In this document: positions 572-46,501 of the stretch, piece after piece | Layout of the letters: each line of letters opens with the position of its first letter | Position numbering within the stretch: the first letter of the stretch is position 1 | NCBI GenBank assembly: GCA_039621445.1 | Contig: CP154954.1 | Location: forward strand, 47,781,847 to 47,845,846 | Direction of reading: 5' to 3' | DNA length: 64,000 nucleotides | From: Euglena gracilis | Lineage: Eukaryota | Notes under the pieces: model-generated | Database searches by the model: none | Told to the model about the DNA's origin: nothing | What the model saw: the letters and a program-made list of their open reading frames with translations, nothing else | Position numbers and translations under genes: made by a program

Positions 572-3500
572 CTACAGCTTGCACTCCGGAAAGGCCCACT
601 TCCGGATCAGGACGTGGGCGAGCGTGGTGGGCGGCGGCAGGCGGAACGGGCTGCCGTCCGGCCCCGGCAGGCCCCCTTTGTTGCACTACAGCGTCTTGTC
701 TGTTTATGGACGGCGGTGGCCCTGTTTGCCGTGTGGTGAGTGGCCAGGGACCCCCCAACACCAGTGTTCTTGTGTTGCTCCCCCTGGCCCGGTGAGTAAC
801 TCTGGCCCTGGCTGGCCCCCACCCCTGTCACCCCTCACCCCCGCTGCAGCTGTGTGTTTCGGGAGGAGCACCCTCTGTGGTGGGGCGGGATGGCAGCCGT
901 GGGGGGGCCTGGCTACGGCGTACGCCGCCGCGGCGTCCAGAGCCTGCTGCACCTCCGTGCGGGGCACCCCGCCAGGCGATTGCTCAGGTCTCCCGAAGGG
1001 GACTCTGAACCCCTCCCCTCGTCCAGTACCCCCTCCTCCTGCGACCTCCACAAGGGGTCACGAGATCGTTTTCCTGACAAAAGAGGTCATAAGGTCCGTC
1101 CCTCTCCACCGGCTACAGATCGCGACGTCGGGGAACAATGAAGCGTCCCGCCTCGAAATCCGGAAATGGCGGGCAATCCTCGTGCGACATCGGGGGCCAA
1201 CCCGACGCCACCCCTCCCCCCAACCGGTCCATTTGGGGGGAGGCGGATCACCAGCGCCGCTCAGGCAACCGGCTGCCCCCAGCGCGCCTCCTCTATCTCG
1301 TCGCTGGGCACGATGGGCTGGCTCGGGAGCGGCCCCTTTTCCACTGAGCAACAATGAACACACGGCACGATGGAAAACAGAAAGAGAGGGGGTGGCGGAG
1401 GGGCGACGGGGCCGGCCGCGTCCCCCTGGCCGAGGAAGCCGATCATGAGGGAGTTGGGGAACGGCCACGGCTGCGACTGCACGTACTGCGGCCCGCCGGC
1501 CCGCCGAGCGACGGGGCAGGGGGGGGCCCCCGGGGCATTCCTTACCTCTCCTTCTCTTTCCGTGGAACGCAGAGAGTCACTGCACAGGCGCTTTTTTAAA
1601 AAAAAAAGAGGGTAGTGGGCAGGCTTTTGCTTCAAGGCCACGGGGGTCCATGAGCTGGGGATTATCCCTAGCCACTGAAGAAAGCCGCAACCTGGATCCC
1701 CCCGGGGGGGGGTCCCGGGGGTCTGCCCATTGAAGAAAAATATCATCGTCTGGCAATCAGGGAATTTCTTAAGGACCCCCAGGGGGGGGGGGTCCAGCCT
1801 CCGGCTGGCAAAAAGGCTGCTGGCTGAACCCCCCCCCCCCCCTGGGGGCGGGGGGGAGGGGGGGGGGGGGGGCCTGGGGCTGGAGGGGGCTGGGCTCGGC
1901 TGGGTCGGTGAAAACCAAAATTTTCTAACACGTTTTTGCCATTTTCGACATTTTGGTGGATGGAGCTAGATCAAGCTGGGGGCTGTGATGGAGGAAGCTG
2001 TGGTGAGGGGAAAAAATGCAGGGATAGGTGAGCTGGGCAGCCCAGTTGGCTGGCCAGCCTGCGGCCGGCTGGCCCAGCCTTCGGCCGGCTGGCCCGGCCT
2101 CCGGCCGGGCCGGACCCAACTTTATTTCAGTCGACCCCCGGGGGGGGGGCTCCCAGCCCAAATTTGGGCTGCTGGCTGGATTTGGGCCGCTGGCTGGCTG
2201 GCCCCCCCCCGCCGGGGGGGGGGGTAGGGTACCCTCCGGCTTAAGAAATTCCCTGCTGGCGATATGCGCCAAGGAGGAACTGGGGATTTTAACGTGCTTT
2301 TTGGCCGACTTTGTCCAAAAAAAAAATCACACCACACCCAAAAATGCCGAAAACGGGCATGCTTTGCAGGTCTCAGTGGTCGAAAAATTCCCGCGCTCGC
2401 CGGTCACTGGGATTTTTTTTTACAAACCAGGATTTCCACCAGGCAGGTCTCTGCTCAAACCCAGGGGCCCCAAGCGGCCCACCAAACCCCCCGGGGTGCC
2501 GGGCGAGCTCTGGCGCACCGGCCGCAGGGTGCCGGGCAGCACCGGGATGCCGGTCTCCTCCAGCACCTCCCGCGCCACCGCGGCCTCGAGGGTCTCCCCC
2601 GGCTCCACAAAGCCCGCCAGGCAGGACCAGAACGGCCCCAGACAGGCTCCTCCCCCGGGGGTGGGGGGACCTGGGCAGTCCGGGAAGGCCTGGGGGTGGG
2701 GGCTGACCCCTGCACCTCCACTCACGGGGTTTCCGGGACTGGTGTTCAAGAAGGATTAACAGCTGAATTCTCAAAATTCTGTTCGGGTAACTGCTGATTC
2801 GATCCGGAAATCCTCTCCGAGTGGCCATCTTTTTCAACCATGTTGGCCCAGACATTCCAGAACTTCGACTCTTTCACGACCAGGCCAGGGGAGGGGATAA
2901 GTTTGGGTTCTGCCCTGCCTGGGTCGGCGGCGCCAGATCGACTATTTCGAAACCACAGAATTGTGGTGTGTTGAAGGGCGGGGGGGGGGACAGTGTAGGA
3001 GTTCAAAAACAAATCAGTGGAGGGCGGGGGGGGGGGGGGGGGGGCCGAAAGCCGGTCGGCCACCGTCCCCATTCCGCCATTGGCCGCCCCCCACCCAGAC
3101 CCAGCCGACCAACCGCAGGCGGAGGAGCCCCCTGAGCCCCGCCGGGAACTTCCGGTTGTGCCCCGGGCACAGGGGCTGGCCCGGGGGCGGGGGAGGCGGG
3201 GTGAGCCCCTGGGCAGGAGGCAGCGGTCGGCGCCGTCGTGGACCAGCATGATGACGGAGGGGTCCGTGCGTGGGAAGCACACGTTGTGCAGCCCCGTCCG
3301 CGTGGGGCACGCCGCGCCCGTGCACTGCCGCTTGTGCCCCGCGTCTGACGGGCGGGCGGCGAGGGGCCAGCGACGGGGGGGGGGGGGACGAGGGGCGGGA
3401 GCGGCACTTCCGTCGGGCCGGCCCCTTTGCAGCCAAAGCCATCCGACCTGCCCACAAATGAAATGACCTTCTCTTTTCAGATGAACATGCACTCATCGAC

Positions 3501-5683
3501 AATTTGGACGTGGGATGGGTTTGGGACAGGGCCTCTCAAAGATGCAACGCAAACCAAAAAGCAGGCACCAGGGGTTTTCTTAAGGACCCCGTGGGGGGGG
3601 GGGTCCAGCCTCCGGCTGGCAAAAAGGCTGCTGGATGGAAACGAGCCAAAGAAAACACAAGAAAGTCTGCGCGCCAACCAAAGCGACATCAGTGCCGCAA
3701 AACCGTCGATTTGGGGAATGGGGGAGCCATGGCTGGGGGCGATTGGGCCAATGCCCACACAATCAGGGTTCGATGAGGAGGATGTACGGGTCAGCGGGGG
3801 GAGTCCCCCCCCCCTTTGCTGGACGGGAGGGGGGAGGGTCCGACCCACCCCCACCCCACCTGCCTTAAAATCAAACCCTGCACACAACCTCGCGTGACTG
3901 GCCTCCATCAGTGACCGCCTGCTGGCTGGACCCCCAGGGGGCTGGGCTGGGCTGGGTCGATGAAAAAAAAAAACTAGACATTTTTGCCTTTTCGACATTT
4001 TGATGGATGGAGCTAGGTCAAGGCTGGGGGGTTGTGATGGAGGAAGCTGTGATGAGGGGAAAAAATGGGGATAGGAGAGCTGGGCAGCCCAGTTGGCTGT
4101 CCAGCCTGCGGCCGGCTGGCGCGGCCTCTGGCCGGGCTGGACTCACTCGACCCCCCGTCCCAGCTCTAATTTGGGCAGCTGGCTGGATTTGAGCTGCTGG
4201 CTGGCTGGACCCCCCCCCCCCCCCGGGGGATGGGGTACCCTCCGGCTTAAGAAAACCCCTGGCAGGCACTGAACAAATTCAGAAACTGCCAGCATGCCTT
4301 TGGGGCTCTTTGGAAAATGCCAAAGCCTTTGGTTAACTGATACAAGACAACCAGTAAATGAGCAAAAAAAAGCCAAATTGAAAAGACGTCAACCACACAC
4401 CATGTCAGACATTGTCTTTTGAAAAATGCAATAGGAGACCGTCTTCGGTGCAAATCTTTGCCGTGAATCATACGCATACACTCCAGCCATATCTCTCTCA
4501 CGTTCCCCTGACCCCCCCCCCCCATGTGAGAGGGTACCACACACCTATGCTGACAGTCGGCGCCCCGCACAGCGTGCAGAACGGGTTGCGGGCGTTCCAG
4601 TCCAGCAGCGACATCGCGTGGGCGAGGGTGCCGCTGTCCTCGTTGTCCGCCAGGCGGAGGAACAGGACGTCCTGCGGGAACACCGCCTCGGCGGGCCCAG
4701 AGGGGGGGGGGGCAGCCGTGTGGCGGCCGTGGCAACACCCACCGCCAAAAGCCAAGGTCAGTCCTGAAAAACAGCCCATCACGTGCATCGCGATCCGCAG
4801 GGCAACCCATGACAAAATGGTTGGTCTGTGCTATCCTAAAAAAAAAAAAAAACCGTTCACAACCCCGATGCCAAGGATTTCAAATGCCCATCACAGAAAC
4901 AAAGGTACATTCCATCACTTCAATTCTTGTTGCACGCAACAAACCTGTCCACCATAGCTGCCAAAAGACAAGAACACAAACACAATTTTTGTTCCTGTCT
5001 ATTGGTTTTGTTCCCGCCCTGTCTGGGAGGTGAGTTGCCCAAATCACCCCCGTTATACCAACTTCTTTGGCGCATTAACTTCTGACACGTTGCCCCCCCC
5101 TCCTCCCGAGGTGCCGCCCACCCCTGCGTGTGGTCTGTGAGGTCGGCGGGCTGGACGGCGTCGGCAACGGCCAGGGCAAAATGGGGCTCGCCCTGCGCTG
5201 CAAACGGCGGCAGGCAGAGGCATGCCCGGGCCGGAAACAGTGCGGCGAAGGCGTGTGGCTGGCGCAAAAAACCAAACCTACAACAAATTCTTCAAGAAAC
5301 CACAACAAAGTCATGTGTGACATGCGTGCCACACGTGACAAGTGCACAAAAAACACACTAAACGAAAAATAATGATGGAAGGGCGGTGTGGGTTACTGTT
5401 CGCCCGGTTCTGGTTCGCCCCTGGTTCGCCCGGGCCTGGGCCCCAGCAGCACCAGCGGCTGCGGGTTGCCCTCCCGCCTGCCTTGCAGCGCCGCCAGCGG
5501 CAGCCACAGCAGCCGGTGCTCCCCCGGCCCCGCCTTGGTGCACAGCGGGCTGTGCCGGCGGCCCCGCAGCACGAGGCACCGCGCCGCCGGGTGGGCCTCC
5601 GCCGCCGCCACGCGCTCCGCGTCGCTGCGGACGTCGGCGCCGCGGTCCGGGAGGGAGGAGTCGACGTACGCCAGGCCGGTCAT
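572..5683 (-). CDS. NADH pyrophosphatase (NudC/NUDT12-like Nudix hydrolase with zinc ribbon), multi-exon, with putative peroxisomal PTS1
   Basis: Exons in transcript order: ~5440-5683 (MTGLAYVDSSLPDRGADVR...), ~5140-5215, 4545-~4700 (SLLDWNARNPFCTLCGAPT), 3215-3344 (KRQCTGAAC...FPRTDPSVIMLV...RCLL), 3138-3164 (GHNRKFPAG), ~2520-2633 (FWSCLAGFVEPGETLEAAVAREVLEETG, Nudix box), ~1415-1486 (YVQSQPWPFPNSLMIGF, the SQPWPFPxS NADH-pyrophosphatase signature), 915-~970, 572-662 (LPPPTTLAHVLIRKWAFPECKL*). The start codon and some small exons are uncertain. Confidence 0.92.
1759..2255. mobile_element. MITE family A (hAT-like ends)
   Basis: 16-bp TIR CAGGGAATTTCTTAAG...CTTAAGAAATTCCCTG; TSD CTGGCAAT/CTGGCGAT (7/8). 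Confidence 0.9.
3569..4261. mobile_element. MITE family A with nested insertion
   Basis: TIR CAGGGGTTTTCTTAAG...CTTAAGAAAACCCCTG; perfect TSD GCAGGCAC (3561-3568 and 4262-4269). Lies inside GT-AG intron 3345-4544. Confidence 0.93.
3764..3880. mobile_element. Small MITE nested in the family A copy
   Basis: TIR CAGGGTTCGAT...ATCAAACCCTG; TSD CACACAAT/CACACAAC. Confidence 0.8.
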
Positions 5684-7548
5684 GCGTGAACGCTGTGACG
5701 CGCGAGGAGGGCGGCGAGGCGTGACGGGCGGTGTGGTGGTCCGGCTGTCCTCCTGTTGTGGGCGCTCTCGATGTGTCTGGAGGAAAAAACCATTGCCGTC
5801 CCCTGGAGCAGCCCTTGCCAGACGGGAGGGGAAGGGGGACCGTCCACCAACCATGCCAAAAACGGCCGTTCCCACACGACCGGGAGAAGGGGGTGGTGGG
5901 GCTTCTCCGCACTCGTTTCCCACATCGCCAGCCAGGGACACATTCTTCTTTCAGAAACACACACACACACACACACACAACCATTCCCAAACATGAATAC
6001 TTCCTGAGCCCTCCCTGTTGGGTTGTGTCCATTCCCCCAGAATTCTGAGAGGATGAAAATCCTGGACTTGCTGGAAAAGAGTTGCTTGGTTGTTCCCCCC
6101 ACATCGCCGTGTGGAATCGGGGCAGAAATACGCTTGGGCAAGGCGGAGCCAGAAGAAATTGAAATTGCATAAATGCCCCAAATCAACAAACTACGCAAAC
6201 AATGTTGCTTTTGCGAAAAACACATTTTAGCTGAATTTTTCGCTTGTTTGAATCTCCCCCCCCCCAACAAAAAGTGGCGGCCGGACAAGCACTAAAAGGT
6301 CTGTAGTCCCGGCCTAAATAACCAATTGAAATGCAGGTGACACAACACATTGACAATTTGAGTACAGGGGTGGGGAGCCCCACTCCGAAGCGGTGGAAGT
6401 CGGTAGTTCACAATGGGGGGGTTGGGCTGGGAAGATTAGACTACAGCGGCACCGCAAGGTCGAGGCCAAGCCTCGGGGAGTGAGATGGCGGAGGGTGATC
6501 GAGGCAGTGGCAGAAGGCGAGAGATGGCGGGGCAGTCGACAAGGCCGTTGCGCCAGACGAACGGCCGGTCACCCCCAGCCGGATAGAGAGAAGACGTGGT
6601 GTGGAGGTCACAGACAGGGTCCGTGGTACCGTATCTGCTCCCGCCCCACATACAATTCCCAGGACAGCCTCTTGGGGATCGTCAGACAACAAATCCTGAA
6701 AACTAAATCGAACGTCTGAATAAATTTGTTTCGCGCAGAGAAAGCGATGCGGACCAAAATGAAGAACACACTTTCTGTGAGAACCCCAAATCCCCAAATC
6801 CACCTGAGGAATGGATACTCTCGGGAGAAAAATTTTGGCCAAATAAATCCTAAAATGCAATTTGTGGTGCTCGAATGGGGGTGGGTGAGCAGGGGGATTA
6901 TAGCCCCACCCCATCCAGTATTTCCCCCTCACACCAAACCCTGGCAGAGCGACAGGCAGGCCTGGCAGGACGATTGATCGCCACCGGCCAAGGAAGAGGA
7001 GGACCTGTCGGAGTGCCAGGGTGACCTGTTCGGAACGCTGCACGCTGGGGGGGGGGTGAGTTTGCACTTGAGCTTGCCATTGAGAGACTTCGAAAGACGA
7101 CAAGGATCCATTGGTCAAAGGGGCTGAACTGCGCACGGGAAACAGGGCCCTGATGCATTGATAACCGGCGCATTCATCTCTGATAAAATGGTCGGGAAGA
7201 ATTGAGCGATTTCGACCCTCCCCCCTAACTTGCCCTCTGCCCAAGCTTCACTGCTGTCAAATACAGTGCAATGGCTCTGCATCGGAACTGCCACCTTCCA
7301 CGACAGCTTGTCAAAGGTCAGGGTGGGTCCTTTCCATCGGGGCACACACACTCCAAGTAAAATGCGCCGACGTTCCACGTGCATGGGCCGAGCTGCCGGC
7401 ACATGTGGGGGACAATGCTCCGAACCACTGGCACAGCACATTTCCGGACAGCTTGCGTCGGTTCCAATCCGCCCTGGAGGCAGAAGAGGCAGAGGAGGAG
7501 GAGGAAGGGGGACGGATGGGCCAAGGCGACGCTGGTCCTGAGAGGGAC

Positions 7549-7863
7549 CAGGCGGTTTTTTTTTTACCAACCTAAGGGGGGGAGGGGGGTCCGGAGTGCA
7601 CTGGAGTGCCTGCCCAGGCAGGCACTACCCCCCCGGGGGGTTGGATTTCGGCCTGTGCCCAGGAACTTGCCTCAGAAAACAGGCCATTTTCCTTGAAAAT
7701 AGGCCTTTTTTGAGCCTTCCGGCGCCGGAGTGCCTGCTGGGCACTTTTGGCCTAGTGCCCCCCCCCCCCCCCCGGGGGTCGGATTTTGTGCCTTGGAGTG
7801 CCTGCCCAGGCAGCCCCCCCCCCCCCCCCGGGTGGGGTCGGCACCCGACGAAAATACAGCCTG
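7549..7863. mobile_element. MITE family B
   Basis: CAGGCGGTTTTTT...AAAATACAGCCTG; perfect TSD AGAGGGAC. A shorter relative is at 8633-8747. Confidence 0.88.
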
Positions 7864-8423
7864 AGAGGGACAACACCGTAGCCGCTCTGGCGACCAGGTC
7901 TGCGTCAGAGGTTGTCTTGGAACCAGGGGGGTCGGCCCCCACCTACTCACCTATCCCCCTGGGGGCGAGCTGGGGGACCCACTTTTGGAGGTCAAATTTG
8001 GGTCCCGATTTTTTGGAGTTCACACCGAAAACGAAGGAAAAAACCCCCACCACTCCAGGAGTTTAACCCGGCCCAACCCCAGCCTGGATGGAGGTCGGGT
8101 CGGGCCCCCCCCCCCCCCACCCTTCGGGCCACCCACAGGCAGGTCAACCACCCCCAGTGCGGGTGGCGTGTTGGCAATGGGCAGGCACATAACAGCACAC
8201 AACAGTGGTGGGTATTGGGAATTCCTGCTGCTGCGCTACGCAACAGTACCTGATCCCCGAGCAGCAAACATCGGTCCGAGGGGGCACTCTTCGCCTCACA
8301 GGCTGACAACCCCTGCAGGCAAAGGCAGGCCCAGGACGGAAGGCAGTTGGGGTCAGGGTCAGCGTGCAACGGAGGTGACGGCGTGAGGCCCGGGGTACGG
8401 TGTGGGGGGAGAGCGCCGCCCCC

Positions 8424-11400
8424 TCACAGCAGCCCCTTCAGCTCCACGAGGCGGTCCAGCAGCGTGTTGCAGCGGCGGACGAGGCCGCGCCGCGCCGCCT
8501 TGGCGTCCTGCTGCCCGGACTGCAGGTCGCAGCACAGCACCGCGTCGATGCGCTGCAGCAGCAGCCGCTCCACCGCGCCGAACAGCTGCGCGATGGGGGC
8601 AGGCCCCCGGGCGGAGGGCTGAGGGAGGGGGGCAGGCTGTTTTTTTTCCAACCCCGGGGGGGGGTCCGGAGTGCCTGTGAGTGCCTGCCCAGGCAGCCCC
8701 CCCCCCCCCCCCGGGGTGGGGTCGGCACCCAACTAAAATACAGCCTGGAGGGTAACCCGCCATTTCCCAAATAAATGCCACCAAATAAATGTCACACCCC
8801 CGAGGACCAGAAAGTGAAATCCAAAAAAAAAAGTGCGTACCCCCAAAAACAAGGGTTTTCACCATTTTTCACCGAACTGGTGCTGCCCAAATGAATGGTC
8901 CAATAATGTGTGCACCCCGTGCAGGGTTTAGGCTGTACGGCCCTCCCCCCACAGAAGGTGGGGTGGGGGGGTTGTCTACCACCACCCACCAACCACCCAT
9001 AGCGTTTTGGGGATTCCCATTCATCCTGGGGGGGCACTCACACGCTGTATTCCTGTGGGGGACCGCCACATGAATCAATTCTTTGGGATATGCCGCCCCC
9101 CAGCTCCCTTCTCCGCTTTGAGTGAGGGGGAATGCGCGTCCCCTTTGTGCTGACCAACCACATTGGACAGGATTGGGCTGGGCTGGACTGGACCACCCAA
9201 CTGTCGAACGCCCTGGACCCTCATTTGTCCATCACGCGAGTGAGCGGAGCCCCTCACCTTATTATTCATCTCATTTTTTTGGGGGGGTGGGTCATTATGA
9301 TTTACCCTCATTCCTGTTTGCTTTTGTGGAGTCACGCGATTAAGGGTCGTCGCAATCGCTGCTGGAGCCTGGCCTTCGTCCTTGTGGCTCACGTCACCGG
9401 GGGCAGGGCATCGCTCAGTGACCCCTGGGGGGGTCCAGCTCAGAGGCTGGGCGCAAGGCGGTAGACTGGGGGGGGGGGTAGTGGGTAGTCGGCCGACTAG
9501 TCGGCCGACTACCCAATTGGTCCACCGACTAGGCCTAGTCGGTAGCTAGTCGGCGAGACAGGGGGGGGGGGGGTAGTGGGTAGTCGGCCAACTAGTCGGC
9601 CGACTACCCACTCTAATGTACTAACGGGTCAAAACCGCCGACTTTTAAGCCCCCCCCCCCATGAACAAAATCCAATGCAAACTAGTCGGTGGCTAGTCGG
9701 TGGTCATAAAATTGGTCTGTGGCGGGCCCAAATCACCCGGAAATGGTCCGGATGGGTCCAAATAAATGTCTTACGCCTAAATAAACACCCCCAGATGGGA
9801 ATCTTTGGTCAGTGGGGGGTCGGTGGGCCCTTGATGGGGGTCCGGAGGGGTAAAAAACCAATGATGAACAGGGATTACATGAAAATGCTTTAGAAATGAA
9901 ATCTGCAATCTGCATTCTGCATCACGAGAGGCAGAAAACTCCCCCCCCACCCCCATCCGAGCTTCAAATAACAAAATCCCTTCTGTGTTGGCAACATACT
10001 CGGGGGCTAAGTCGTTTTTGTGGCTCACTTTGGCATAGGCGGGGGGGGGGGCTCCCCCACCCCCCGCACCCCCCCCTCAAATAACAAAATCCCTTCTATG
10101 TTGGCAATGGACTTGGAGGGATAATACCTTTTTTTTGTGCAAATTTTGACTTATATTGAAAATTCAATGGGGAGAGGTGTACTTTTGTCAAAAGTGGCCC
10201 AAAATGGACATTTTCCCCCAATTTTTTTGCATATTCAACCCCGATTGGGGGGTTCTGGAGCCATTTGGGTGGGTTTTGACTGGGGTTGAGGTGATGTAGA
10301 CAAAAAAATTTCCCAGGGGGGGGGGCTTAAAAGTCGGCGGTTTTGACCCGTTAGTACATTAGAGTGGGTAGTCGGCCGACTAGTCGGCCGACTACCCAAT
10401 TGGTCCGCCGACTAGTCGGCCGACCAATTAGTCGGCCGACCACCCACTACCCCCCCCCCCCCCAGTCTACCGTTTGGCACTCAGAGGCTGGAACTGACTG
10501 GAAAAAGGCCGCTGGCTGACCCCCCCCCCCCCATAGGCGTCCCCCGGCTGGGGCTGGGCCCGGGGTCGAACCGGATGCCTAAAAGTCGAAACTCCAAAAA
10601 ACCCCCCAAAGCTGCCAATTATGTAAAATTGCAAATAAATCGATTTTTTGATCCAAAATTTCCCTGGCCAGCCCAAATCCGACCCATTTTTGCCCATTTT
10701 GCCCATTTTTGCACCCGAAAGCCATAAATCCGTTACCGTCCAGCCACCCAAAAGGCGGCTTGAAAAAAAAATTGAAACTCGTCGATGGGGGGGGGTCCGG
10801 CGCTGGAAAAAGGCTGCTGGCTGGCTGGAACCCCCCCCCTCCGGGGGATGGGGTCCACTTCGGCTAAGCGGCGCCCAAGCTGGGGGTGAATCCGGCGACG
10901 GTCCGCTCCAGGTCATCCACCTCCGCCTTCAGGTCGTCGATGCGTTGCAGGATGGAGATGGACTTCGTGCTGTACTTCCGCGCGAAGTCCTGCAGCAACC
11001 CAGAGGTGGCCCAGAAGCTGTTTGACTCACTTCCTTCCTGACTGATAACCGAAGGATTATTGGCAGATTGAAGACCCCAAAACTATAAAACAAATTTGCA
11101 TTAATCTTCTGCAAAATCTCAGCTCCAAATCTGCAGCATTCGAGCGGAATGGACATTAGTTTTAGGGCGGTCAGTGGATGGGGGGGAGCTTAAAACGTTG
11201 TGGATGCTCAGGGGAAGGGACAGAGGTGAAAAAAAAGCAGAAGATTGCCATTCAGAAAATATACCATTCACATAAATGTTTTCTGGACTGAATTAATGCA
11301 ATTTTTCCAACAAGATGCAAATGACTTCAATGACCATGAACCTTGCCCAGCAGCCGAACCTCCTGGGGGAAGGAGGTCAGATGAAAGCAAATAAATTTTG

Positions 11401-14400
11401 AGTAAAAAAGGCCGGCAAATTGGCGTGTGAGAAAAAACACTGCAGCCCCCACAATGCGGCAGCCATGGACATCGGCGAGCCGGAATTTTTAATTCCACTA
11501 TTTCCTTTTTCAGGATGGGAGCACCTCCCCCTGTCAACATCCAACCCTTCCCACCTAGAACGATGTGCCTGACACCAGCAATGATATGCACCACATTCAC
11601 GTAGCATGTGACCCACGCCTCCCCTGGCACACCGCAGCGCCCATGCTGGACTCCAACGCCCCCACCTCGCCCGGCGGTGCCTCCGGGGCCTCGAGGGCGT
11701 CCCCCTCCTCGCCGGCCGGCGCGTCTCCCGCGTCCTGGTCGGCCCCCGGCTCGCCGCCCGGGTCCCCCGCCGCGGCCCCGACCTCCTCCGCGGGGGCAGA
11801 GGCGGCCGTGCGGCGCAGGCCGCTCAGGAAGGTGAGCAGCGCTTCCGCGCGCTGCACGAGCTGCCGCCGCTCCGCGCGGGCGTCGTCGCGGCCAGAGCAG
11901 AGGTCGGCGGTGGCGACGGCGTCGATGCTGTGCAGCAGCAGCCGCTCCACCTGTCGGGGGCCGGAGGGGGGCGGCCAGGGGGTGGCCATGCCCAGGAGGT
12001 TGGGGGGCGCTGGCTGGGCTGCCAACCGCCTTGTAGGGGGTTTCGTCGGACAATCATTTGTTTAACACCCAAACAACTGTGTCCCAAATGCAAAGCAGGG
12101 AACCTGAGCGATAAACCAGAACCACATTTCTTTTCAATCTGTCCGAAAAAAGACGTCCCAGCGACATTTCGATTGGCAGCGAACTTTGTCGCCCACCCCG
12201 AAAACTGGGATGGAAGATGGCTGGAATGCAATCAAATCGGAAGAAAAAAGCAGGCAGCCGTAACTGGACCTTGTACTGGTCTCCAGGAGGCTTGAGAAAC
12301 AAACCAAGCCCTGCCAGAGGTACTCGGGCCGCATATGGCAGCCACACCTTGCCAAACAGGGTCGCCAGGTCGTCCCGGGACTCCGGCGTCAGATCCTGGG
12401 CCCGGCGCTCGTAGCCGGCCAGCTCCTGCCCCAGGGTGAGCAGAGTCTCGATGGCGCTGGTGGACCGTGAGCTGTACGAGCACTGGCAGTGCCCCCTGGG
12501 GCAGCCCCGGCTACCTTGTTGCCTCATGGTCCACCACGAGCACACACCTGGGTCCCCCGTGGGAAGGTGGCAACCTGAAAATGATGATTTTGGTGGTTGA
12601 ATTCCGACGCAGGTGTCATTAATTTTGAAATGAAAAAAATCCGACTTGCAATTTCTTTTTGCAAAATTTTCCAAAATGACAATTCAGTGGGTGCTACCTT
12701 TGGTAATAACCTTCCAGCATGAAAAATCAGCCAGCACAGGCCGAAAAGACAACTTCTTTGGCGGAAACTGAAAAATGGGAACCTCACAACCTCGCTGGGG
12801 TATCAAACACAGGTTGAACACGCAAAAGCAGAAAGGGGGCCTGGCTGAGACACTCGACGCTGAGAGCCCTGCGACGATGTGAAAACAATGCACGGTGGTG
12901 GGCAGTCTGATGGTGACACACAGAACCAAACCCTATCAAATCCTGTGGCACGCCTCTGTGACGGGAGGACTCGCTCAGGGCGTCAACGGGGTTTCGTTTC
13001 AATTCGCAGTGGCAGCCAGCCTAAGAAGCCGAATGGGCCAGACCTCGCCCTCTCCCTCCGCCTCCTCCTCCTCCGTGATCTCCTGCTCCGAGGGGGACTT
13101 CGCCGCCAGCGGCTCCTCCGCCCCCTCCTTGGCCCGGCCCGGCTGGGGGCCGGCCGGGGCCTCGCTGGGGCGGGGCGGGTTGCGGCCGGAGTTGGGGGAG
13201 GGCTGGGCGGGGCTGGGGCGGGCCGGTCCGCCGGGGTGGTTGGGGTTTGGGGTGGCGGCGGGCCACCGGCCAGAGCCGGCGGGTGTCGGGGCAGAGGCTT
13301 TTCAGATGATTGTGGCTGTGGCTGCGCATGCATGTGCGTGTGCGTGTGCGTGTGCGTGTGCGTGTGCGTGTGTGTGAGTGCGTGCCAGTGCGTGTGTGAG
13401 CATGCGTGCGTGTGCGTGTGCACGCATGCGTTCGCGCGTGCGTACGTGCATGCACACGTTCATTTGCTGTGTGCTGAGGCTGTGCATGTTTGAGTTTGGT
13501 TGCGCGCGCAAATGGTGGGTGGTGTGGACAGCACCCATTTGTATGAACTCGCCTGTCGGAAATATGCGATGCTGGAGCCGGCATGGAGCCGCGTGAATAG
13601 CGTGCTCCCCTCCACCCCCATCACCTTGGCAAGCCCCTGGCCATCGGCTGCGCAGGGTACGGGCTGGGGCCGGGTGCCGCCCGGGAGGGAGACATCGGCC
13701 CGAAGCCCTGGCCGCGCAGCTGGCACGTGTGGCGCAGCAGCACCAGCCGCTGCTTCAGGATGTCCGCCCGCTGCAGCAGCAGCCGGCGCTGCACCCGCAC
13801 CACCTCCCCGCCCGCGCCCCTCTCACACGCAACGGGAGCCCGGGGGGGAGGTGGGACCGCCATGTGGGACAATGCACAAAGTGGTAGTCTTAAACTGACA
13901 TGTGGTTGGTGGTGGTAGGTAGGTCACCAAATGTCATAATATTCGGTGGCACCAGTAGTGCACCACTTCCAATCTTCCAAAAACCAATCATTCACCTTTT
14001 TGAAAACCAGTCAGTCACTATGGGGGCCACTCTGGAGCTCAGGAAGAAACCGTGAAAAAAAAAGGAGAAAGAATATTCCGACACCTTCGGCGTTGGCTGG
14101 TTCTTTGCTGACCCCCCTCCCTGGGAGGAGGGGTCCGAGCCAAAAACCAATTGGTCACTCTGAAAAAAAAACAAGCCCCCCCCCCCAAGGGGTCCAAGGG
14201 TCAGGGGTGGGGGTCAGGAGTGACCAAGCGATTGTATGGCTGGGATATGTACTTCCATTGCTGAACTGCCTGGCCATTGAAGAACCAACAGGGCTCTGAA
14301 ATATCGGCCGGTGTAATGCACTGACCATCACCAACATACCTGATGGTGGTGATGGTCAACGCTGCCTTGTTGCCTGGCGGGCTGGAGAGGGCCGCGGAGC

Positions 14401-17400
14401 ACCGTACTGGACCCAGAGGTCAGTGGGCCCGAGGGGGTCCAGGTGCAGGCAGGGCAGCCCTGGAGCAAAAAAAAAAAGTCCTTGCTTGTTTACACCATCG
14501 CCCATCCACCCAAAGTGGCAAAAAAATCATTTTTCAGAATTATTTAAAAATATATATAGTATTATATATAGTATTACATAAAAGTATTATGAAAAAATAC
14601 TAAAAAATTATATAGTTTTTTTAGTATTTTCGACTTTTAATTCTCAACCCAGTTCGATCCCCGGAAAGGCCATTGGTGGTCCCTTGGGTCTCAGGGAGGT
14701 TCGCAACAAAAGCAAAAACAGAATCCCGTCCTCATGGACCTCCCTGGGGGCAGGATGATGCCGTCCATCGTCTGCAGCAACGCCTGGATCTCCGGCAGGC
14801 ACTCCGGCGCCAGGCCGCCCTGCAGCTGGTTGACCCGCGCCTCGATGGCCGCCAGGTCCGCCGCCAGCAGCTCCAGCTGCCCCAGCTGCGCGTCCCCCGC
14901 CGGCGGCGGCTGCGGCACGGCGGGGGGGGGGGGCGGTGGAGACGGTGGGGGACGCCTGGCCAGGCCTCGGGAGGGGGGGGGGGCTCCCCCCCCTCCTTCC
15001 CCCTCTCGAGACTCGGGCGGAAATCCCGGGGAGGTGGCGCAACAAGGAGCCCCAACACTGCTATCGGGCACAGATGGCATTGGTGACGGACAATATTGGG
15101 TGAAACCTTTTAAATAGTCCGGAAACAAAAACCACCCTGGCATTCTCGGGCTGCCCAAGGCGACCTCGGCAAGGTTCACAAAATGGGTTGGGAGCATGGC
15201 GTTGGCAGAGGAATAGCATGGCCAGGTTTTATCCGAATTTGGGGGTAGCCACCTTTACCCAAGGCTGGAGGGGGGGATTGGTCTCCTCATCCCCCCCAAT
15301 ACACACAGACAAAGGCGTGCAACGGCACTGGTACGTTCCTGCTGTCTGGCAGTCGTGGCTGTTCTCAAACTGCAAGGCTGGAACCCCCGCTGCCCAGCAA
15401 CCCTTCCGGCACAGCCCACACACACCTGAGCCGGCTGGCGCTGCGGCATCGCCCCCGTCGGGTAGCCGGGCAGCGGCTCCGCGGGCAGCGCGGCGCGGGC
15501 CAGCGAGCCACTGCCGCCCCGGGCCAGGGTGGGCGTGCCGCCGCTGTAGTCCCACTGCCACGGCGGCCGCAGGGCGTCGGGCGGGGGCCACCCACGCGGG
15601 CCGGCCCTTCTTGCGCGTTGGGTCGGCAGGACGACTGGGCGGCCCAACAAAGCCGGGGGGTCATATATGGGGTCATTGGCTACCAGCGGCTTGATGCCAA
15701 CACAAGAGGGGGGGGGGGCACAGGACAGGCAGACCCAACCCGCACCCCGCTGTGCTGTGCTGTTGGTGGGGGGGAGGCAATGGGGGTCCCGAGCCTCCGC
15801 GCGCCGCCCTGGCCGCAGCGGCGGAGTCGTACCGGCCGTCGTGGAACCGGTGGGGGGCTGGGGCCGACCCAAAGCCGGCCCCGACGCCGTGCTGCGGGGC
15901 AGGGAGGGGGAGGCGGAACGAACGTGCCAGGCCAGGGAACGGGGGACCGCACACAGCGGCGAACTGCTGCGGACCTCCCTGCCCGACTGGAAAAAAAATA
16001 CACCCCTGGAGCCTCCAAGAGCTGCTGAAGCTTGTGGTGAGTCTGGTTGAGACATGGCAAAAAAAAGCCTGCCAAAAAAGCCAGAAACCTCAGCTGTGGC
16101 CGCAAAGCAGCGATAACGCGCAGAATCGCAGCGGTCCAGACTTTCGCATCTGAACGCTTGTGGAAGGGCCACCTGGGGGAACTTGGTCCCTGAGAAGCTG
16201 CGGTGCAGCGGGAAGTCGGATCTGGGGGACTGGTCCACATCAGGGTTCGATGTACTCCCTCTTCAGTCCAGGAGGGGGGGGGGGGGGGGGGACACCGCCA
16301 CTCCAAAGCAGTGGCGCGGTGGCGAAACTTTTTTGCCTCCCAAAATCGAAAGATGGCATCGAAAATGCCATCTTGGGCACCTTTTGGGCAAAAATTTGTC
16401 CGAAAAGCCAAAAAAATTGGCGGGAGGTGCCGAAAGGAATAATTGACCTTTTGGGGGGGGGGCAGACATTCATTTAGTGTGGTTCACAAAAGTCGTGTGA
16501 ACCACAAATTTTTTTCTGGTGTCCACAGGTGAACCACAAATTTTTTTTTGGTGTCCACAGGTGAACCACAAAAAAAATTTTGGTGTCCACAGGTGAACCA
16601 CAAAAATTTTTGTGGTGTCCACAAAAAACTTTGTGGTCCACAAAAATTGATTGAGGATCGAAAAAAATAAAACTTACACCTAAAAGCGGATTGATCTTTA
16701 GACACCTCAGCCACATTCTGAGCCTTGGCCCCAGCTCAATCCACGAAGTGTGGCAGTTGGAATTGGACAGATTGCTATCGAGAGTTCTCAAGCAGACATG
16801 CTCTATAGACAACTTACCCAACAAGGATACCATCAAAAAGTTAAGTCCTGGCGTCGATGAAGCGGAATTCCGCTTCATGGAAGCAGAAACACGCGACATT
16901 ATCGTGGGGCTTTGGCATGGCTGTGGACATTGGGAGCGTTCTGGGGCATTGTGGGGTGTCAGTTGAGTGCCTCAGTGCCTGAAAAAGTGCCTGAAAAATC
17001 GGCAATGCCATGTGCTTTGTTTTGAGGTAGGAGCCGGAAAGCCACTTCATTGCTGTGGTGTCAGATCTTCAACTTGACCATTCAATGAAAGACCACATTC
17101 AGTATAGTTTTTCATTCAGAAGGGTAAGTGTCAGCCTCATTCTGGTGTTTGCAGTTTGGCAATATGAGATAATTAAAAGGTAATATGTCAGCCTGAGGAA
17201 GCGGCTAACCGCTTCATATTTGCTCTGTTTTTTTTGCAGGTTTTACACCAATGTCATGTCGAAATGTCCTTCCAAGTGAAGCACGGGGAAGTGAACAGAA
17301 GGTCTGTATCGTTTCGCGTGTTCTACCTTTCGTAACTCGTGCAATTGTCTCCACGTGGTTTGACGTATTTGCATTATACACTTTGGATAATGACATTCAA

Positions 17401-25933: not shown

Positions 25934-27052
25934 GAGGGGGGGGGAGACGACGCGCAGTCGGCCTCAGGGAAGGGGGGGGGGAGGGAGGGAGAGAGGAAGG
26001 GAGAGAAGGGTAAGCACAGCACAAAGAAAGTCAACATCAGCGCTTTGCTTGGGAGCGGTCAGCCAACAAAGCGTCAGGACGAGTCGTGTGGCACAGCATC
26101 AGGGGGTCGCTGGCATTAGGCCCCCGGGCTGTCTGAACTTTCCTTGCGTGATGGGGTTTGTACTGAATGAAATAATTTGCTGTTTTTGAAAAAAAATGTT
26201 CAGGTCATTGGACCATGACAAGTGAATTTTCAGCCTGTTTCGTCCAAAATGGCCGCTTTGGCAAAATCATCGCCTACTTGCATTCATTCTCTTCACAAAG
26301 AGTAATTGTTGACGGACCTGGCTATGATCAAGGCGCAGCCAGAGACAAACCACTATCGGTTTCTCGGTCATCCTCACCATGACTGCACATTCTGAAGGTT
26401 CCTGGTGTTTGGTTTATTTCTGGAAAATACCTTGATGGGTTGGACGTGGGAGATCCCCAAACATACCAACGCTCTGCTTGAACCCAATTAGCACCGATGG
26501 GAGATGGGCAGGTCCAGCACTGGCCCATCCCAGGACGGGTTGCATGGCAAAGGCTTGGTGCGCGGGAGGGTCGATCTCCCTCCTGCGCAAATTTGGAACC
26601 AAATGAAAACTGTGAACTAAAAACTGGCACTTCTGGAAAACGGGAAGAGGTGGCGGGGGGATCAGATCCACACCAGGGCGTTGCTTGAGGATCCCCCCGG
26701 GGGGGGTCCAGCTCAGAGGCTGGAAAATTTGGGCTGGTTGGGAAAAGGTTGCTGGCTGACCCCCCCCCCCCCGGGCTCCCGGGTCGGAGCGGAACGTGAC
26801 CCGCGTCAAACCAGGTACCAAGAACTCAAACTGCAAAAATGTCCCAAAAACTGCCAATGCAAAAATAATCGATGTTTTGACCCCAACTTTGTCCTGGCCA
26901 GCCCCTTTCCAATCCATTTTCGCCCATTTTTGACCCGTTTTTTTTTTACCATTTTTGACCTCCGAAAGCAAAAAATGTGCGTTACCGTCTTTGGTCTTTG
27001 GGCGGCTGGAAATAAATACACTTGATGGAAGGGAGGGGTTCGCTGGCTGGAC

Positions 27053-27292
27053 CATGCTTGTGCTTACCGACGGGGGGGGGTGCTATAGGGTGCCTGCCCC
27101 TAGCAGGCACACCCTCCCCGGGGGGGGGTAGGCACACACCCCCCTGCGGGGGGGGGACCCAGAAAATTTTCATTGAAAATGGCCTTTTCCGGGCCCCCGG
27201 CGCCTTCGACGCCGGGGTCGGATCGGGTGCTATGGGGTGCCTGCCCCTAGCACCCCCCCCCCCCGTGGGGCACCCGACTAAGCACAAGCCTG
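27053..27292. mobile_element. MITE (CATGCTTGTGCTTA...TAAGCACAAGCCTG)
   Basis: Imperfect 14-bp TIR; perfect TSD GGCTGGAC. Confidence 0.85.
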
Positions 27293-30053: not shown

Positions 30054-30099
<46 letters not shown>

Positions 30100-36076: not shown

Positions 36077-36226
36077 CAGGGGTTTTCTTAAGGACCCCCC
36101 GGGGGGGGGGGGTCCAGCCTCCGGCTGGCAAAAAGGCTGCTGGCTGGAAATGAGCTGCTGGCTGGACCCCCGGGGGGATAGGGGGGGGGGAGGGGGGGTC
36201 CGGGCTGGAGGGGGCTGGGCTGGGCT
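36077..36226. mobile_element. Truncated family A MITE (left end only) inside the NUMT
   Basis: CAGGGGTTTTCTTAAGGACCCC...GTCCAGCCTCCGGCTGGCAAAAAGGCTGCTGG matches the starts of the 1759 and 3569 copies. No right TIR. Confidence 0.88.
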
Positions 36227-38546: not shown

Positions 38547-38924
38547 TCAACTAGGGTCCAGTCCCGCTGGCGAAAAAAAGACAGATGTCTGGACCCTTGC
38601 CGGGGGAGGGGCCCTCCCGCCTACGAGACACCCTGCCCGCTGCGGCGGGCGGCCACCGAGAGGATCGGGGGTGCGGGGTGGCAGCTGCAGAGCTGCCTGG
38701 AGGTCCCGGCGCCGCAACGGCTTGGGCAGGTACGAGTTCATCCCCGCCGCCCGCAGCCCGGAGCGCCGGAGGAACGCCAGCCGGCCAAAAGCATCGTTAG
38801 GCAACAGTCCGCCCGAACCAGGTTCAACCCGTGTGTATGTCTGCATTTGCGTTACGGAATGAATGCGTTTTGCGTGTGTATGTGTGTGTGGTGCGTTTTG
38901 CGCGTGGTGTGTGTTGTATATGTG

Positions 38925-38968
<44 letters not shown>

Positions 38969-41900
38969 ATGCGCACATGTTGTGTGTGTGGGTCAGTGGA
39001 TGGGTTTTGTTGTGTGTGTGTGTGTGTGTGCGTGCGTGTTGTGTAAGTTGTGTGCGTTGTGTATGGGGGGGTCATGACAGGAAATTGAAGCGGCACACAA
39101 GCCTTCCTTCTTGGATGGTCTGCCGGGCTGGGGACCTATGGGGGCCGACGCCGCGGTCCAGGCCGGTCGCAAGGCACTCCTGCTTTGTGGAGCCGACGCA
39201 GTCTGCCGTGGTGGCCACGATGCGGATGGGCGGCAGCGTTCCGAAGAAGCCGCTGGCAGCCCTGGCGCTCCCCAGCCCACAGCACATGGGACAGGGCCAG
39301 GACTGTAGGGAATGCTGGGTGGGGAGTGGTCGACCCCTCCACCCGGGAGGTGGGGGGGTCGACCCCCCCTACCAGGCATTCGCTTAAGGACCCCGGGGGG
39401 GGGGGTACTGGCTAGCAAATCGGCTAGACACTGGAAAAAGTGGACTGGCTGGCCCCCCCTCCCCCCCGGGGGGGGGGGGGGTCCAGGGGTCCCCCGAACT
39501 GGAAAAAAAATTTTCCTCCAGCACTGCGCGCCGAGGTGGAAATGAGGTTTTTAATAGGTTTTTGGCTGATTTTGTTCCAAAAAATCCCAAAAATGGCCAA
39601 AAATGGGCATTTTGGGCCATTTTTGGGGTCCGAAAAAAATTTTCCGGCGCTTCGCGCCGGTCACTGGAAAAAATTTTCCCACTAGCTAGCCCTGCTAGCA
39701 GACCCCCCCCCCCCGGGGGGGGTCTGCTAGAAATCCCACTAGCCAAATTTGGACTAGCTGCAGTCCAGCCCCCCCCGGGGGGGTACTGCAATCCCTTAAG
39801 CAAATGCCTGCCCCCTACCCACCACAGCACCCACGCAAAGGAAATCCCCCCGGTGCCCCCGGAAATACGGGAAGGCATGGCGGGAGGGGGGGGGGGCTGG
39901 TCGGACGCCCTCACCCACCAGTATGGGGGATGGGGGGTCGACCCCACACACACCGATAGGGTTTGTACAGCCCTGGACGAGGGGGGGGGGTTTCAGCCAG
40001 GCTTCTGCTTAAGGACCCGGGGGGGGGGGTACTGGCTAGCCAATCGGCTAGACACTGGAAAAAATGGACTAGCTGGACCCCCCTCCCCCCCGGGGGGGGG
40101 TCCGGGGTCCCCCGACCTGGAAAAAAAATTTTTCCTCCGGCGCTGCGCGCCGAGGTGGAAATGAGGTTTTTAATAGGGTTTGGGCTGATTTTGTTCCAAA
40201 AATCCTCAAAAAATGGCCAAAAATGGGCATTTCTGGCCATTTTTGGGGGTCCCCAAAAAAATTTCCGGGCTTCGCGCCAGTCACTGGAAATTTTTTTTCC
40301 ACTAGCTAGCCCTGCTAGCAGACCCCCCCCGGGGGTCTGCTAGAAATCCCACTAGCCAAATTTGGACTAGCTGCAGTCCAGCCCCCCCCCCCCGGTGGGT
40401 ACTGCAATCCCTTAAGCAGAAGCCTGGTTCCAGCCTTATGCATCATGTGTGTCCAGTGCAAATACACGTGCTGGCGTATGACTGTGTGGGGGGGGGGTGA
40501 CCAGGAGCGCAGCTGTTGTGTGGGCTGTGCCGTGCCTCGTGTCTCGGGAACGGAGTGCCGGGCCGGCCCTCCTGCTCCATGCGGCGGATGGCGCGCGCGC
40601 ACTCGATGCCGTCCATCACCGGCATGTGGTAGTCCATGAGGATGACCGGGTACCAGGTCGTCTTCAGCCGCTCCAGCACCTGTGGCACAGGGGAAGCGGG
40701 GGAGGTCTGATCGATTTTGCTTCAGGCAGGTGAACTGGCAGACATGAACATGGCAGCAAAGCGAGACGAGGGACCAGCCAGGGGGGCGTAGGAAAAATGA
40801 AATGGGGTTCAGACGGTGGACGCAACCGTTCAGAAGTCCCGAATGCAATAAAATAACAACAAATCTCCTGTGTTATATATGCCCTGTGTGTGATACCCAA
40901 AAGCATGTATGCGGGAGGAGGACCGAGACCCTCCTCAAATTGCCGTTCGAGGCCGTTTGAGGAGGGGTTTTAAGCCCCCACCCTGGGACTTAAAACGTCG
41001 GAGGAGGTTCGACCACCTCCTCCTACGGTTACCCTCCCTTTGGGTAACCCAAAAGAGATTTTCTTTGAAAAAAACAAAATTGGACGTGCCCTGCCTATGC
41101 CGCTGGCGTTTCGACGCGTGACGGATGCGCAGGGGGCTAGGGGGCCGGGGCCCACCTCCTGGCCGTTGGCGCAGAGGTGGCTGCGGTACCCGAGCTGGCG
41201 CAGCTGGAGCTGCATCAGGCTGGCCATCATGATGTTGTCCTCCGCCACCAGCACCTCCAGGTCCTCCGCGGACACCGGCGGGGGGGCGGCCGGCGCGGGC
41301 CGCGGGTACATCCGCCCCAGGCCGCCGTGCGCCGGCGGCCGATGCATTTGAATTTCAGGCGGTTGGGATCAAAAACCAATTTGTCGGACCATTGGTACCA
41401 CGGGGGGGGGGGGTGGAGTGACATCGGAGGCCTTCGGAAAAATTGCATAAAAAATGCTAAAAAATAATTGCAGAAATTGCGGAATTAGTACACATTTCTG
41501 CTGGAGGGGACTTCCAAAAATTCACAAGTTCGGTCATTTTGCAACATAGACATTGGTTTTGAGCCGTTATTCAGATTTTTCTTTTCAACAAAAAAGTCCG
41601 AAAACATGCCCATTCTGCAAATATAAAACTTCTTGGGTGAGAAATCCCAAATGGCAAAATATTGACAACACATTGGTATCAGGTAAAACCTGGTCTAGGA
41701 TGCAAAATTTTCTAAGTTAAATCATTTCCTAGCAGAAATTGGGGAAAAACCTAAAAAAAGGCCCAGGATTTCACAAATTTTGTGAAAAATTGGCAAATGT
41801 TGGCAAACTTGCCACAAAAAAACCAAACAAAAAAGCACCTGGGTTCCCTTGAGAGGTGGGGGAGGTAACAACCTAACCCCCCAATGAACCCCCTACGGTC

Positions 41901-44900: not shown

Positions 44901-46501
44901 CAGGAAAGGTCGACAAAGGCAAATGGGCCACTGGCGGAAGGTGGCAATCCCCGGCGACAACTGGGGACTGGGACTCAAACGTTGAACCCATTCTTCTTTG
45001 CAGGCATTTCTGATGGCAGCACTGTGGATGCATGTCTCTCTCAAGCGTCACGCTAAAAATTGAAGACAGCTTCGCTGTTTTGCCCCAGCCAGGGTTGATT
45101 TCCATTATCATCGGTGGCGTTGCTTTTGGTAGCCCTGGAAGGGGGTGTGTGTGCTTGCTCGAAAGTACTTTTGGGGATCCCCTGACACCTGCAAGGAGCA
45201 CAGCTTCCACACGACGTAGGCGGAGGACAGGGCGGTGCACAGCGACAGCCGGGCCCGGTCGTTGCTCACCACGATGAGGACGACGCAGTTGTGGTACCGC
45301 GTGGGGTCAATGCGCTCCGTGGCCACCGGCGTCAGCGGGATGACGAACGACACCTGCGACGGCCAAAACGAAACACCACCCAAGGCGCACCACACACACG
45401 TGCGCGCACACACACACACAAACATCCAAAAAATTCCTGTGCTTTTGGTGGTATCTAACTTGCAGGGGTTTTCTTAAACACCCTGGGGGGGGGGGAGGGG
45501 GATTCCAGCTGGCTCGAAAGGTTCTGGAAAAAAGCTACTGGTTGGACCCCACCCCCAGGGGGTGGGATGCAGGGAGGGTTCGGCCGTCTGGGAGCTGGAC
45601 CCAAATAGCACCAAAGACTTGGCGGAAAAAGCTAAATTCAGTTGAGATGACATTTTACAGCCAAAAGTCTAAGGTAAAATCCCCAATTCCCATTTTTTTT
45701 TCAAAAAATACTTGGCGATTCGTGCCAATAATTCTTCAAATTACCTCAGCTGCGCCGGGCTGTTCCAGACTTAATTTTGGTGGACCCTGAGGGGGGGGGG
45801 AGGTCAGCAGTCCGGATGCGAGCTGCTGGGTGAAAAAGAAAGTGCTGGTTGGCTGGCTAGACCTAGGGAGGGGTCCCCTTCGACGGAAGAAAACCCCCGT
45901 GGGGACCTCATAGACCGTCACCACATCAACCATCCACGTTAACCACCATGTGGGCTTCTCTGGGGCAGACCTTGGTGCCCACGTTGCTGATGGACTGCTC
46001 TGGCAGTGTGGAGGGGGACTGGATCTGGATGGACCCGTTCATCGCCTCCACGAGTGACTTGGACAGCGTCCGCCCCAGGAGGGGACGGCCATCCCGGTCC
46101 CAGCCCAGACATCCCCCACCGACGCAAGCAGGGCGCTGCATTGCGTCCCGGAGCGACGGCAGACAGGCACGCAGACAAAGAGGGCAGCCTTGATGACGCC
46201 GTGACGTGGCGCTGTCTGGCCCTGACCAAGCCTAAGCCGCAGCCTTCAAACCTCCGCGTGCTGCTTTGGTCCACCTGTGGCGAGCGGCACGCACAAAAAC
46301 ATCGCACGCTCACGCAACACAACTCAACACAACGCAACGCAACGCAACGCAACACAACACAACGCAACGCAACACAACGCAACACAACGCAACGCAACTC
46401 AACACAACGCAACACAACACAACACAACGCAATGCAACACAACGCAACGCAACACAACACAACGCAACACAACACCGCAAAACAACACACACACACAACG
46501 C

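Follow-up and report, generated by a model that had tools for sequence, protein, structure and literature searches.

The window analysed here, a stretch of DNA of 64 kb in its entirety, is GC-rich and prokaryotic gene structure is absent from it. Three genes were recognized, coding for a NudC-like Nudix hydrolase, a BAG-like protein and a hybrid histidine kinase, and the interruptions in these genes are mainly nonconventional introns. Introns of this type, with paired ends, are a hallmark of euglenids, and the intron type makes the nuclear DNA of a Euglena-like euglenid the most likely source. Besides the introns, the window holds free inverted-repeat elements flanked by 8-bp target-site duplications (TSDs). 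A preliminary description, made from the letters alone, had linked the two: the introns would be cut 3 nt before and 5 nt after the arms of a terminal stem and, 3 and 5 adding up to 8, any transposon with such ends and an 8-bp TSD would be removed from a transcript without a scar.

Parts of this proposal are already known, namely the 3+5 rule and an origin from miniature transposable elements with inverted repeats (MITEs) (PMC3935182, PMC12501133, PMC11282704). Milanowski et al. 2014 (PMC3935182) placed CAG at +4 to +6 and CTG at -8 to -6 and proposed a MITE-like origin, and the splicing code N3-CDG...CHG-N5-6|R was tested genetically, with 3-bp and 5-6-bp spacers (PMC12501133). The latter source also gives CGG-CCG and CGG-CTG variants, a preference for downstream exons that begin with a purine, a proportion of 84% for "slidable" introns, and a share of ~72% for nonconventional introns in E. 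agilis. In a 2024 review (PMC11282704), CAG/CTG is named a terminal inverted repeat (TIR) and the junction repeats are described as TSD-like. Subscription journals and supplements aside, the literature yielded no paper equating the 3+5 spacers with the TSD length, and none assigning the donors to hAT or describing free elements with these ends.

Geometry of the RNA-supported introns

The raw RNA-seq runs X21 and X24, together with contigs of X1 and X3, were aligned to positions 1-20000, and the counts given here rest on 15 of the 206 joints in that interval. Among these 15 joints, at least 11 introns have RNA support, all of them in 1-8400 (Table 1); ten are non-canonical (not GT/GC-AG) and one is GT..AG. 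The orientation was taken from the stranded run X24, which places the gene on the minus strand (11 versus 0 reads at joint 662/915). Joining the exons at the RNA joints gives a single open NudC-like frame, the Nudix box of which is recognized by Pfam (NUDIX, E 6.5e-10). Allowing for an aligner slide of 0-3 nt, 8/10 nonconventional introns read N3-CAG...CTG-N5, and the remaining two N3-CGG...CCG-N5 (1325-1417, a variant described in PMC12501133) and N3-GCC...GGC-N5 (1490-2525). Nine introns had been proposed from the letters, and three of these (663-914, 2634-3137 and 3165-3214) coincide with RNA joints at both borders, with 7-17 reads each in X21 and 9-11 in X24; one of the nine, 9399-10881, misfits (see below).

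In each of the ten nonconventional introns, all combinations of an offset a, counted from the 5' cut, and an offset b, counted from the 3' cut, were examined for their longest Watson-Crick stem. When a joint slides, a and b shift and a+b stays unchanged. The outermost stem has a mean length of 5.2 bp on the diagonal a+b=8, versus at most 2.0 bp on diagonals 0-7 and 1.5-2.3 bp on the odd diagonals above 8, while diagonals 10, 12 and so on contain the same helix again, further inward. A stem of at least 3 bp is present on diagonal 8 in all ten introns, and all three non-slidable ones sit at (3,5). On the 5' side the cut precedes the helix by 3 nt and on the 3' side it follows the helix by 5 nt; the helix between the two intron ends is usually closed by CAG/CUG. 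Transcript junctions with another sum had been named beforehand as the result that would speak against the proposal, and the offsets summed to 8 in 10/10 cases. When two short introns were folded as RNA, the z-scores were -1.6 and -0.1, neither significant, and only the first had the terminal helix in its minimum free energy fold. In this GC-rich DNA, neither the motif nor the reading frame is specific: intron prediction from the motif alone (5-bp stem plus CAG/CTG) was discarded after it returned a very long list of false candidates, and the open-frame constraint allowed 660 solutions for a single exon.

Among known systems, bulge-helix-bulge introns of tRNAs are spliced by an endonuclease and a ligase at sites measured from a helix. 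The likeness lies in cuts set by the distance from a helix, and the difference in the asymmetry of the offsets 3 and 5 of nonconventional introns. With the euglenid nonconventional introns, those of the window share the non-GT/AG borders, CAG at +4 to +6, CTG at -8 to -6 and the terminal helix, and the CGG-CCG and CGG-CTG variants also occur here. The GCC...GGC ends of 1490-2525 are outside the published CDG/CHG motif; otherwise nothing essential differs, and the introns are new members of this known class. Nonconventional introns are reported to be released as circles (PMC11282704, PMC12501133); no back-splice (circular RNA) joint was present among the 15 of 206 joints.

Inverted-repeat elements with 8-bp duplications

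The whole window was scanned for the pattern X8-CA..TG-X8, with a 10-bp TIR and at most 2 mismatches, and 12 matches were obtained versus 0.1 in ten dinucleotide shuffles, three of the 12 falling in a microsatellite at 54.6-55.0 kb. With the TIR pairs fixed and the flanks permuted, a TSD length of 8 gave 8 matches versus 0.18 expected; the matches at TSD lengths 5-7 are internal repeats of repeat families. Under a stricter TSD filter, the 16 classes of TIR start dinucleotides gave 7 matches for CA, 5 for CT (a palindromic cluster) and 0-1 for each of the other 14. Allowing one TSD mismatch added four more elements and one with a poly-G TSD (11 of the 23 rows being microsatellite), which brings the total to 14 CA..TG elements; they measure 117-2485 bp, and their TIRs are perfect over as much as 17 bp. 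Nine of their TSDs are perfect (8/8), four match at 7/8 and one is poly-G. At least ten elements had been counted beforehand, a figure that is borne out and lies above the shuffled and permuted expectation.

The element families recur as copies with different TSDs, which is a signature of transposition. Element 1758-2255 is related to 3936-4261 (77.5% identity over 374 bp). Several elements lie within introns, among them 1758-2255 in nonconventional intron 1490-2525 and 3569-4261 in the conventional intron 3345-4544, and two pairs are nested. Taken in both orientations, the TSDs give the target consensus GTnnnnAC, with T at position 2 or A at position 7 in 17/26 half-sites versus a base frequency of ~0.22-0.24. 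The ends are CAG..CTG and in some elements CAA..TTG or CAT..ATG, CAA or CAT standing on at least one arm in 5/14 (on both arms in four). The joint presence of 3+5 introns and free elements with 8-bp TSDs is thus confirmed as real and well above chance.

Transposons of the hAT superfamily (Ac/Ds, hobo, Hermes) make 8-bp TSDs, with TIRs starting CA(G/A), a target nTnnnnAn and a terminus YARNG. The present elements resemble non-autonomous hAT elements in the 8-bp TSD, in the CA(G/A) start and in GTnnnnAC as compared with nTnnnnAn; all 14 start CA, but the YARNG terminus is present in full in only four of them (the CAGGG ones). The designation "hAT-type" given earlier is supported by TSD length, target consensus and CA start; on the other side, no transposase is evident among the open reading frames (ORFs) of the window, the list of which was inspected by eye, without a domain scan. 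A hAT-like transposase, encoded elsewhere, is what the features of these non-autonomous elements point to. In a Euglena genome, 8-bp TSDs are likewise known from the Merlin elements of E. gracilis, but their TIRs start GG (PMC8101967). Merlin identity was excluded, since every element here starts CA and pairs of GG-start TIRs gave a single match with an 8-bp TSD. A metagenome scan with a degenerate TIR of one family (family A) hit 20 loci, none with an inverted partner, and these were set aside as chance matches.

Other repeats are also present in the window. At 9489-10423, a palindromic cluster of GGCCGACTAGTCGGCC-type repeats takes on the look of CT-start inverted repeats with 8-bp TSDs. The five CT-start matches come from this cluster, which probably constitutes a separate repeat family. 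Long TG/CA and TGTA-type microsatellites occur at 54300-55100, where they gave false TSD matches, at 38850-39080 and at 13300-13420, some of them in introns. Beside long runs of G or C (1844-1873, 7758, 16274-16292) there are hundreds of reads whose homopolymer ends are loose, as well as long-range RNA joints (1873 to 16271/16272); these have the look of reads cross-mapped among the copies of a single repeat family. Finally, an AT-rich island at 33600-36900 (GC 12-37% in 200-bp bins versus ~55-60% around it) has no convincing ORF and is broken at 36069-36226 by a MITE fragment that is GC-rich; one candidate explanation for the island is an insert derived from an organelle.

Proposed introns and host genes

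For the introns proposed outside the RNA-supported set, the helix at register (3,5) was counted with G-U pairs allowed. Four of them lie in the BAG-like gene (8595-9374, 9399-10881, 13807-14400 and 14445-14749) and restore open frames, which are cheap in this DNA. In 8595-9374, an RNA contig agrees with one border (8594) only, and 13807-14400 and 14445-14749 are not among the 15 of 206 RNA joints listed for 1-20000. In the form claimed, 9399-10881 departs from the 3+5 rule, having a 1-bp helix and no CAG/CTG at 3+5. A putative micro-exon of 24 nt (9375-9398) stands between the first two of these introns and fits a stretch of 131 nt of contig between the pieces at 8594 and 11632. The gene itself repeats a BAG-like module, for which the BAG matches in Pfam are weak; with exon 11632-11947, a search for homologous proteins (longer proteins) gave no match.

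The hybrid histidine kinase gene appears to occupy 38700-52450 on the minus strand, at least 14 kb, and to be split into many small exons. Its HisKA region is found at ~52.2 kb, followed by the ATPase N-box (~50.8 kb), the G2 box (~46.2 kb) and the receiver (41.3-38.6 kb). Pfam matches to hybrid histidine kinase domains are partial, and Pfam gave none for the G2-box ORF or the ORF at 39075-39368; PDB searches with exons 39171-39239 and 45929-46069 were also without matches, so that the G2-box region beside intron 46071-46227 has no independent domain match in either database. The exon downstream of 38749-39168 opens with a receiver motif that aligns to residues 124-144 of 7c1j_A, a histidine kinase receiver of solved structure (E 0.24). 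Near 52245 a junction had been reported as not fitting cleanly, and indeed neither GT-AG nor 3+5 works there. Directly after the histidine-kinase H box, 51984-52244 has a frame-keeping solution with GG..AG borders and a pyrimidine-rich 3' end, and may represent an "intermediate" intron.

Intron 663-914 contains a 146-bp stretch (672-805) with 79% identity to a second locus at 32255-32399, and a contig of an RNA run continues from 805 into this second copy. Rfam has no family for the stretch (at the gathering threshold, the Rfam search gave 0 matches altogether); either a small RNA hosted by the intron or a repeat could be present here.

Table 1. Introns and inverted-repeat elements of the window (element positions without and, in brackets, with TSDs)
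Feature	Position	Strand	Ends and helix	RNA joint, TSD or remark
Nonconventional intron, NudC-like Nudix gene	663..914	-	AGC+CAG...CTG+CCGGG; register (3,5); 9-bp terminal helix	Joint 662/915, no slide; X21 17 reads, X24 11 reads, contigs in X1 and X3
Nonconventional intron	968..1278	-	GGG+CAG...CTG+GCGGG	Joint 966/1278, slide 3; TSD-like 8-mers 6/8
Nonconventional intron, CGG...CCG variant	1325..1417	-	7-bp helix on a+b=8	Joint 1323/1417, slide 2
Nonconventional intron, GCC...GGC ends	1490..2525	-	5-bp helix on a+b=8	Joint 1487/2524, slide 2
Nonconventional intron	2634..3137	-	GCT+CAG...CTG+GGGCC	Joint 2632/3137, slide 1
Nonconventional intron, 50 nt	3165..3214	-	GCC+CAG...CTG+TGCCC; 8-bp helix	Joint 3163/3214, slide 1
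Conventional GT...AG intron, NudC-like gene	3345..4544	-	No helix at (3,5)	Joint 3344/4545
Nonconventional intron	4693..5129	-	ACG+CAG...CTG+GGCCC	Joint 4692/5130
Nonconventional intron	5206..5441	-	GCC+CAG...CTG+CCGCC	Joint 5204/5441
Nonconventional intron	6610..6946	-	TGC+CAG...CTG+TCTGT; both arms 8/11 to TIR of CAGGGTTCGATG element family	Joint 6609/6947, no slide; strand from 2 stranded reads only
Nonconventional intron	7901..8318	-	CTG+CAG...CTG+ACGCA; arms 8/11 and 7/11 to CAGGGGTTTTCTTA family	Joint 7900/8319, no slide; strand from 1 stranded read
Claimed intron, BAG-like gene	8595..9374	-	GGC+CAG...CTG+CCCCC; 8-bp helix	Contig piece ends at 8594
Claimed intron	9399..10881	-	Helix 1 bp; no CAG/CTG at 3+5	Frame open
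Claimed intron	13807..14400	-	CCG...CGG ends; 5-bp helix at (3,5)	6-bp competing stem on another diagonal
Claimed intron	14445..14749	-	CCC+CAG...CTG+CCTGC; 5-bp helix	Flanking 8-mers 7/8
Claimed intron, receiver domain of hybrid histidine kinase	38749..39168	-	CGG...CTG variant; 9-bp helix	
Claimed intron, kinase ATPase region	46071..46227	-	GGT+CAG...CTG+GGGCG; 5-bp helix	6-bp competitor on another diagonal
Element	1758-2255 (1750..2263)	.	16-bp perfect TIR CAGGGAATTTCTTAAG	TSD 7/8
Element	3569-4261 (3561..4269)	.	16-bp perfect TIR CAGGGGTTTTCTTAAG	TSD GCAGGCAC 8/8
Element	3764-3880			TSD 7/8; nested in 3569-4261
Element	7549-7863 (7541..7871)	.		TSD AGAGGGAC 8/8; shorter related copy at 8633-8747
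Element	16241-18725 (16233..18733)	.	TIR CAGGGTTCGA	TSD 7/8
Element	16463-18198		14-bp perfect TIR	Poly-G TSD; nested in 16241-18725
Element	22220-23682 (22212..23690)	.	TIR CAAGCACCTCTG	TSD AGAACGAC 8/8
Element	27053-27292 (27045..27300)	.	Ends CATGCTTGTGCTTA / CAGGCTTGTGCTTA	TSD GGCTGGAC 8/8
Element	39373-39810 (39365..39818)	.		TSD CCCCCTAC 8/8; in kinase-gene intron
Element	39998-40426 (39990..40434)	.	17-bp perfect TIR	TSD 7/8
Element	46726-47211 (46718..47219)	.	CATGGATGT ends	TSD GGGAGAAG 8/8
Element	47831-48346 (47823..48354)	.	CAAGC ends	TSD GTGACAAT 8/8
Element	58260-59406 (58252..59414)	.	TIR same as 22220-23682	TSD GTCCGGAC 8/8
Element	63058-63495 (63050..63503)	.	CAGACAT ends	TSD GTTCATGT 8/8

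The link between elements and introns

If the cuts fall 3 nt ahead of CAG and 5 nt past CTG, an element plus 8 nt is taken out and one TSD copy is left, so the arithmetic of the preliminary description is correct. We consider it rather probable that CAG..CTG elements with an 8-bp TSD are born as working nonconventional introns and supply new ones. Such an element would insert in an exon and make an 8-bp TSD; from the transcript it would be removed with exactly one TSD copy, which would restore the pre-insertion mRNA, the removal being scarless because 3+5=8. In older introns, nothing but the helix would be retained by selection, and the spacers of 3 and 5 nt, being free of constraint, would drift until the TSD is no longer visible. 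The closest parallel is found in the introner elements of Micromonas, dinoflagellates and Fritillaria, where, according to the review (PMC11282704), introns derive from non-autonomous TIR elements with a TSD, and precise removal is made possible by this duplication. Those depend on the spliceosome, with splice sites partly built from 3-5 bp of TSD, whereas in the present case an RNA helix sets the position of the cut, the TSD has 8 bp and the borders are non-canonical.

In favor of descent, the intron stems are closer to the element TIRs of the window than control CAG sites are: beyond CAG, 4/22 intron arms agree with the TIR of an element at 8/11 or more, versus 2.0% of 2447 control CAG sites, and the mean best match is 5.86 in intron arms versus 4.57 in controls (5.83 versus 5.22 among CAGG sites only). 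Flanking repeats that resemble a TSD are present at 14445-14749 (7/8, the best such case among the introns) and at 968-1278 (6/8). The Y|R step described at both junctions of introns (PMC6221363) is what two copies of one TSD would be expected to give. In addition, a strain-specific new intron in the E. agilis gapC gene carries eight-nucleotide junction repeats (PMC4770533).

Several observations weigh against this reading. In the test of junction 8-mer identity suggested in the preliminary description, no significant excess appeared: the 8-mers of the ten RNA-verified introns match at 29/80 positions, versus a local background of 0.308 (z ~1, not significant), and the value of 27/48 in the unverified claimed introns may be higher as a result of choice by eye. 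The introns most similar to TIRs, 6610-6946 and 7901-8318, have TSD matches of 1/8 and 0/8, and the intron spacers, compared by eye, are without the GT/AC target consensus. Apart from nested insertions, comparison within the window gave homology to a free element for none of the intron interiors. No joint excising an element with intact TSDs is among the 15 of 206 joints listed, which is silence and not absence. For small offsets, the chance of a sum of 8 alone is roughly 1 in 10. The five elements ending in CAA or CAT fail the published CDG requirement, and to this list belongs the transposase that was not evident among the window ORFs. The proposed tie between splicing geometry and transposase cut agrees with the offsets in 10/10 introns, and no significant TSD remnant was seen at the RNA-verified ones.

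It is possible that the agreement is a coincidence, i.e., that the offsets 3 and 5 are a property of the splicing machinery, that the elements are ordinary transposons with a CAG end and an 8-bp TSD, and that most introns have another origin. The missing TSD remnant (29/80) and the matches of 0/8 and 1/8 in introns with TIR-like arms speak for it; the intron helices are also short and GC-rich, the element TIRs measure 12-17 bp with an AT-rich subterminal CTTAAGG, and two introns have GCC/GGC or CGG/CCG ends. However, the CAG/CTG termini concur with the exact sum of 8 and with the published eight-nucleotide repeats of the new intron (PMC4770533), and the intron arms are nearer to element TIRs than control CAG sites are; we regard coincidence as rather unlikely. 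The authors of PMC4770533 proposed that new introns are made by double-strand-break repair, the junction repeats being repair footprints and not TSDs. Repair gives no reason for a length of 8 nt or for the abutting CAG/CTG, and in the window there are genuine elements whose TSDs measure exactly 8 bp and whose target consensus is palindromic; we give this explanation very little credence.

The order of events might also be the reverse, with the splicing rule in place first and element families with fitting ends and TSD length spreading through genes; the elements would then mimic introns and would have had no part in shaping the rule. The 14 elements in 64 kb, many inside genes and introns, are in line with such a spread, as is the existence of non-fitting CAA and CAT families, by which a CAG end is not universal in the transposon group. 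This order predicts the same geometry as the birth of introns from elements and nothing in the window tells the two apart; we consider it improbable.

A link through 3+5=8 is plausible but only partly supported, with mixed evidence for descent within the window: it is supported by one strong published datum and not yet by the window's own introns. The claim that any such transposon would be spliced out is too broad. Because the published code needs C-D-G...C-H-G, splicing is not expected of elements in the CAA..TTG and CAT..ATG families; the acceptor exon should, in addition, begin with a purine, a point decided by the TSD and the orientation. A stronger form, in which nonconventional splicing is an RNA-level excision system matched to one transposon type and every exonic CAG..CTG hAT-like element is at once a scarless intron, we can hold only tentatively and with some doubt. 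If true, it would explain how nonconventional introns have become more numerous than conventional ones, and the 3-nt and 5-nt "spacers" would be the decayed halves of a TSD.

How euglenid nonconventional introns originate and how they are removed are standing questions, and a MITE origin has been proposed since 2014 without named donors. The window offers candidate donors with intron-type termini, an 8-bp TSD and a hAT-like target consensus. The closure 3+5=8, together with free hAT-like elements with matching ends, constitutes a testable refinement of the published MITE hypothesis, which becomes sharply testable through this sum: if it is true, young introns are expected to have 8/8 junction repeats placed 5+3 around the cut, and slidable junctions are expected within -5 to +3. 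If confirmed, the euglenid introns would represent a non-spliceosomal counterpart of the introner mechanism.

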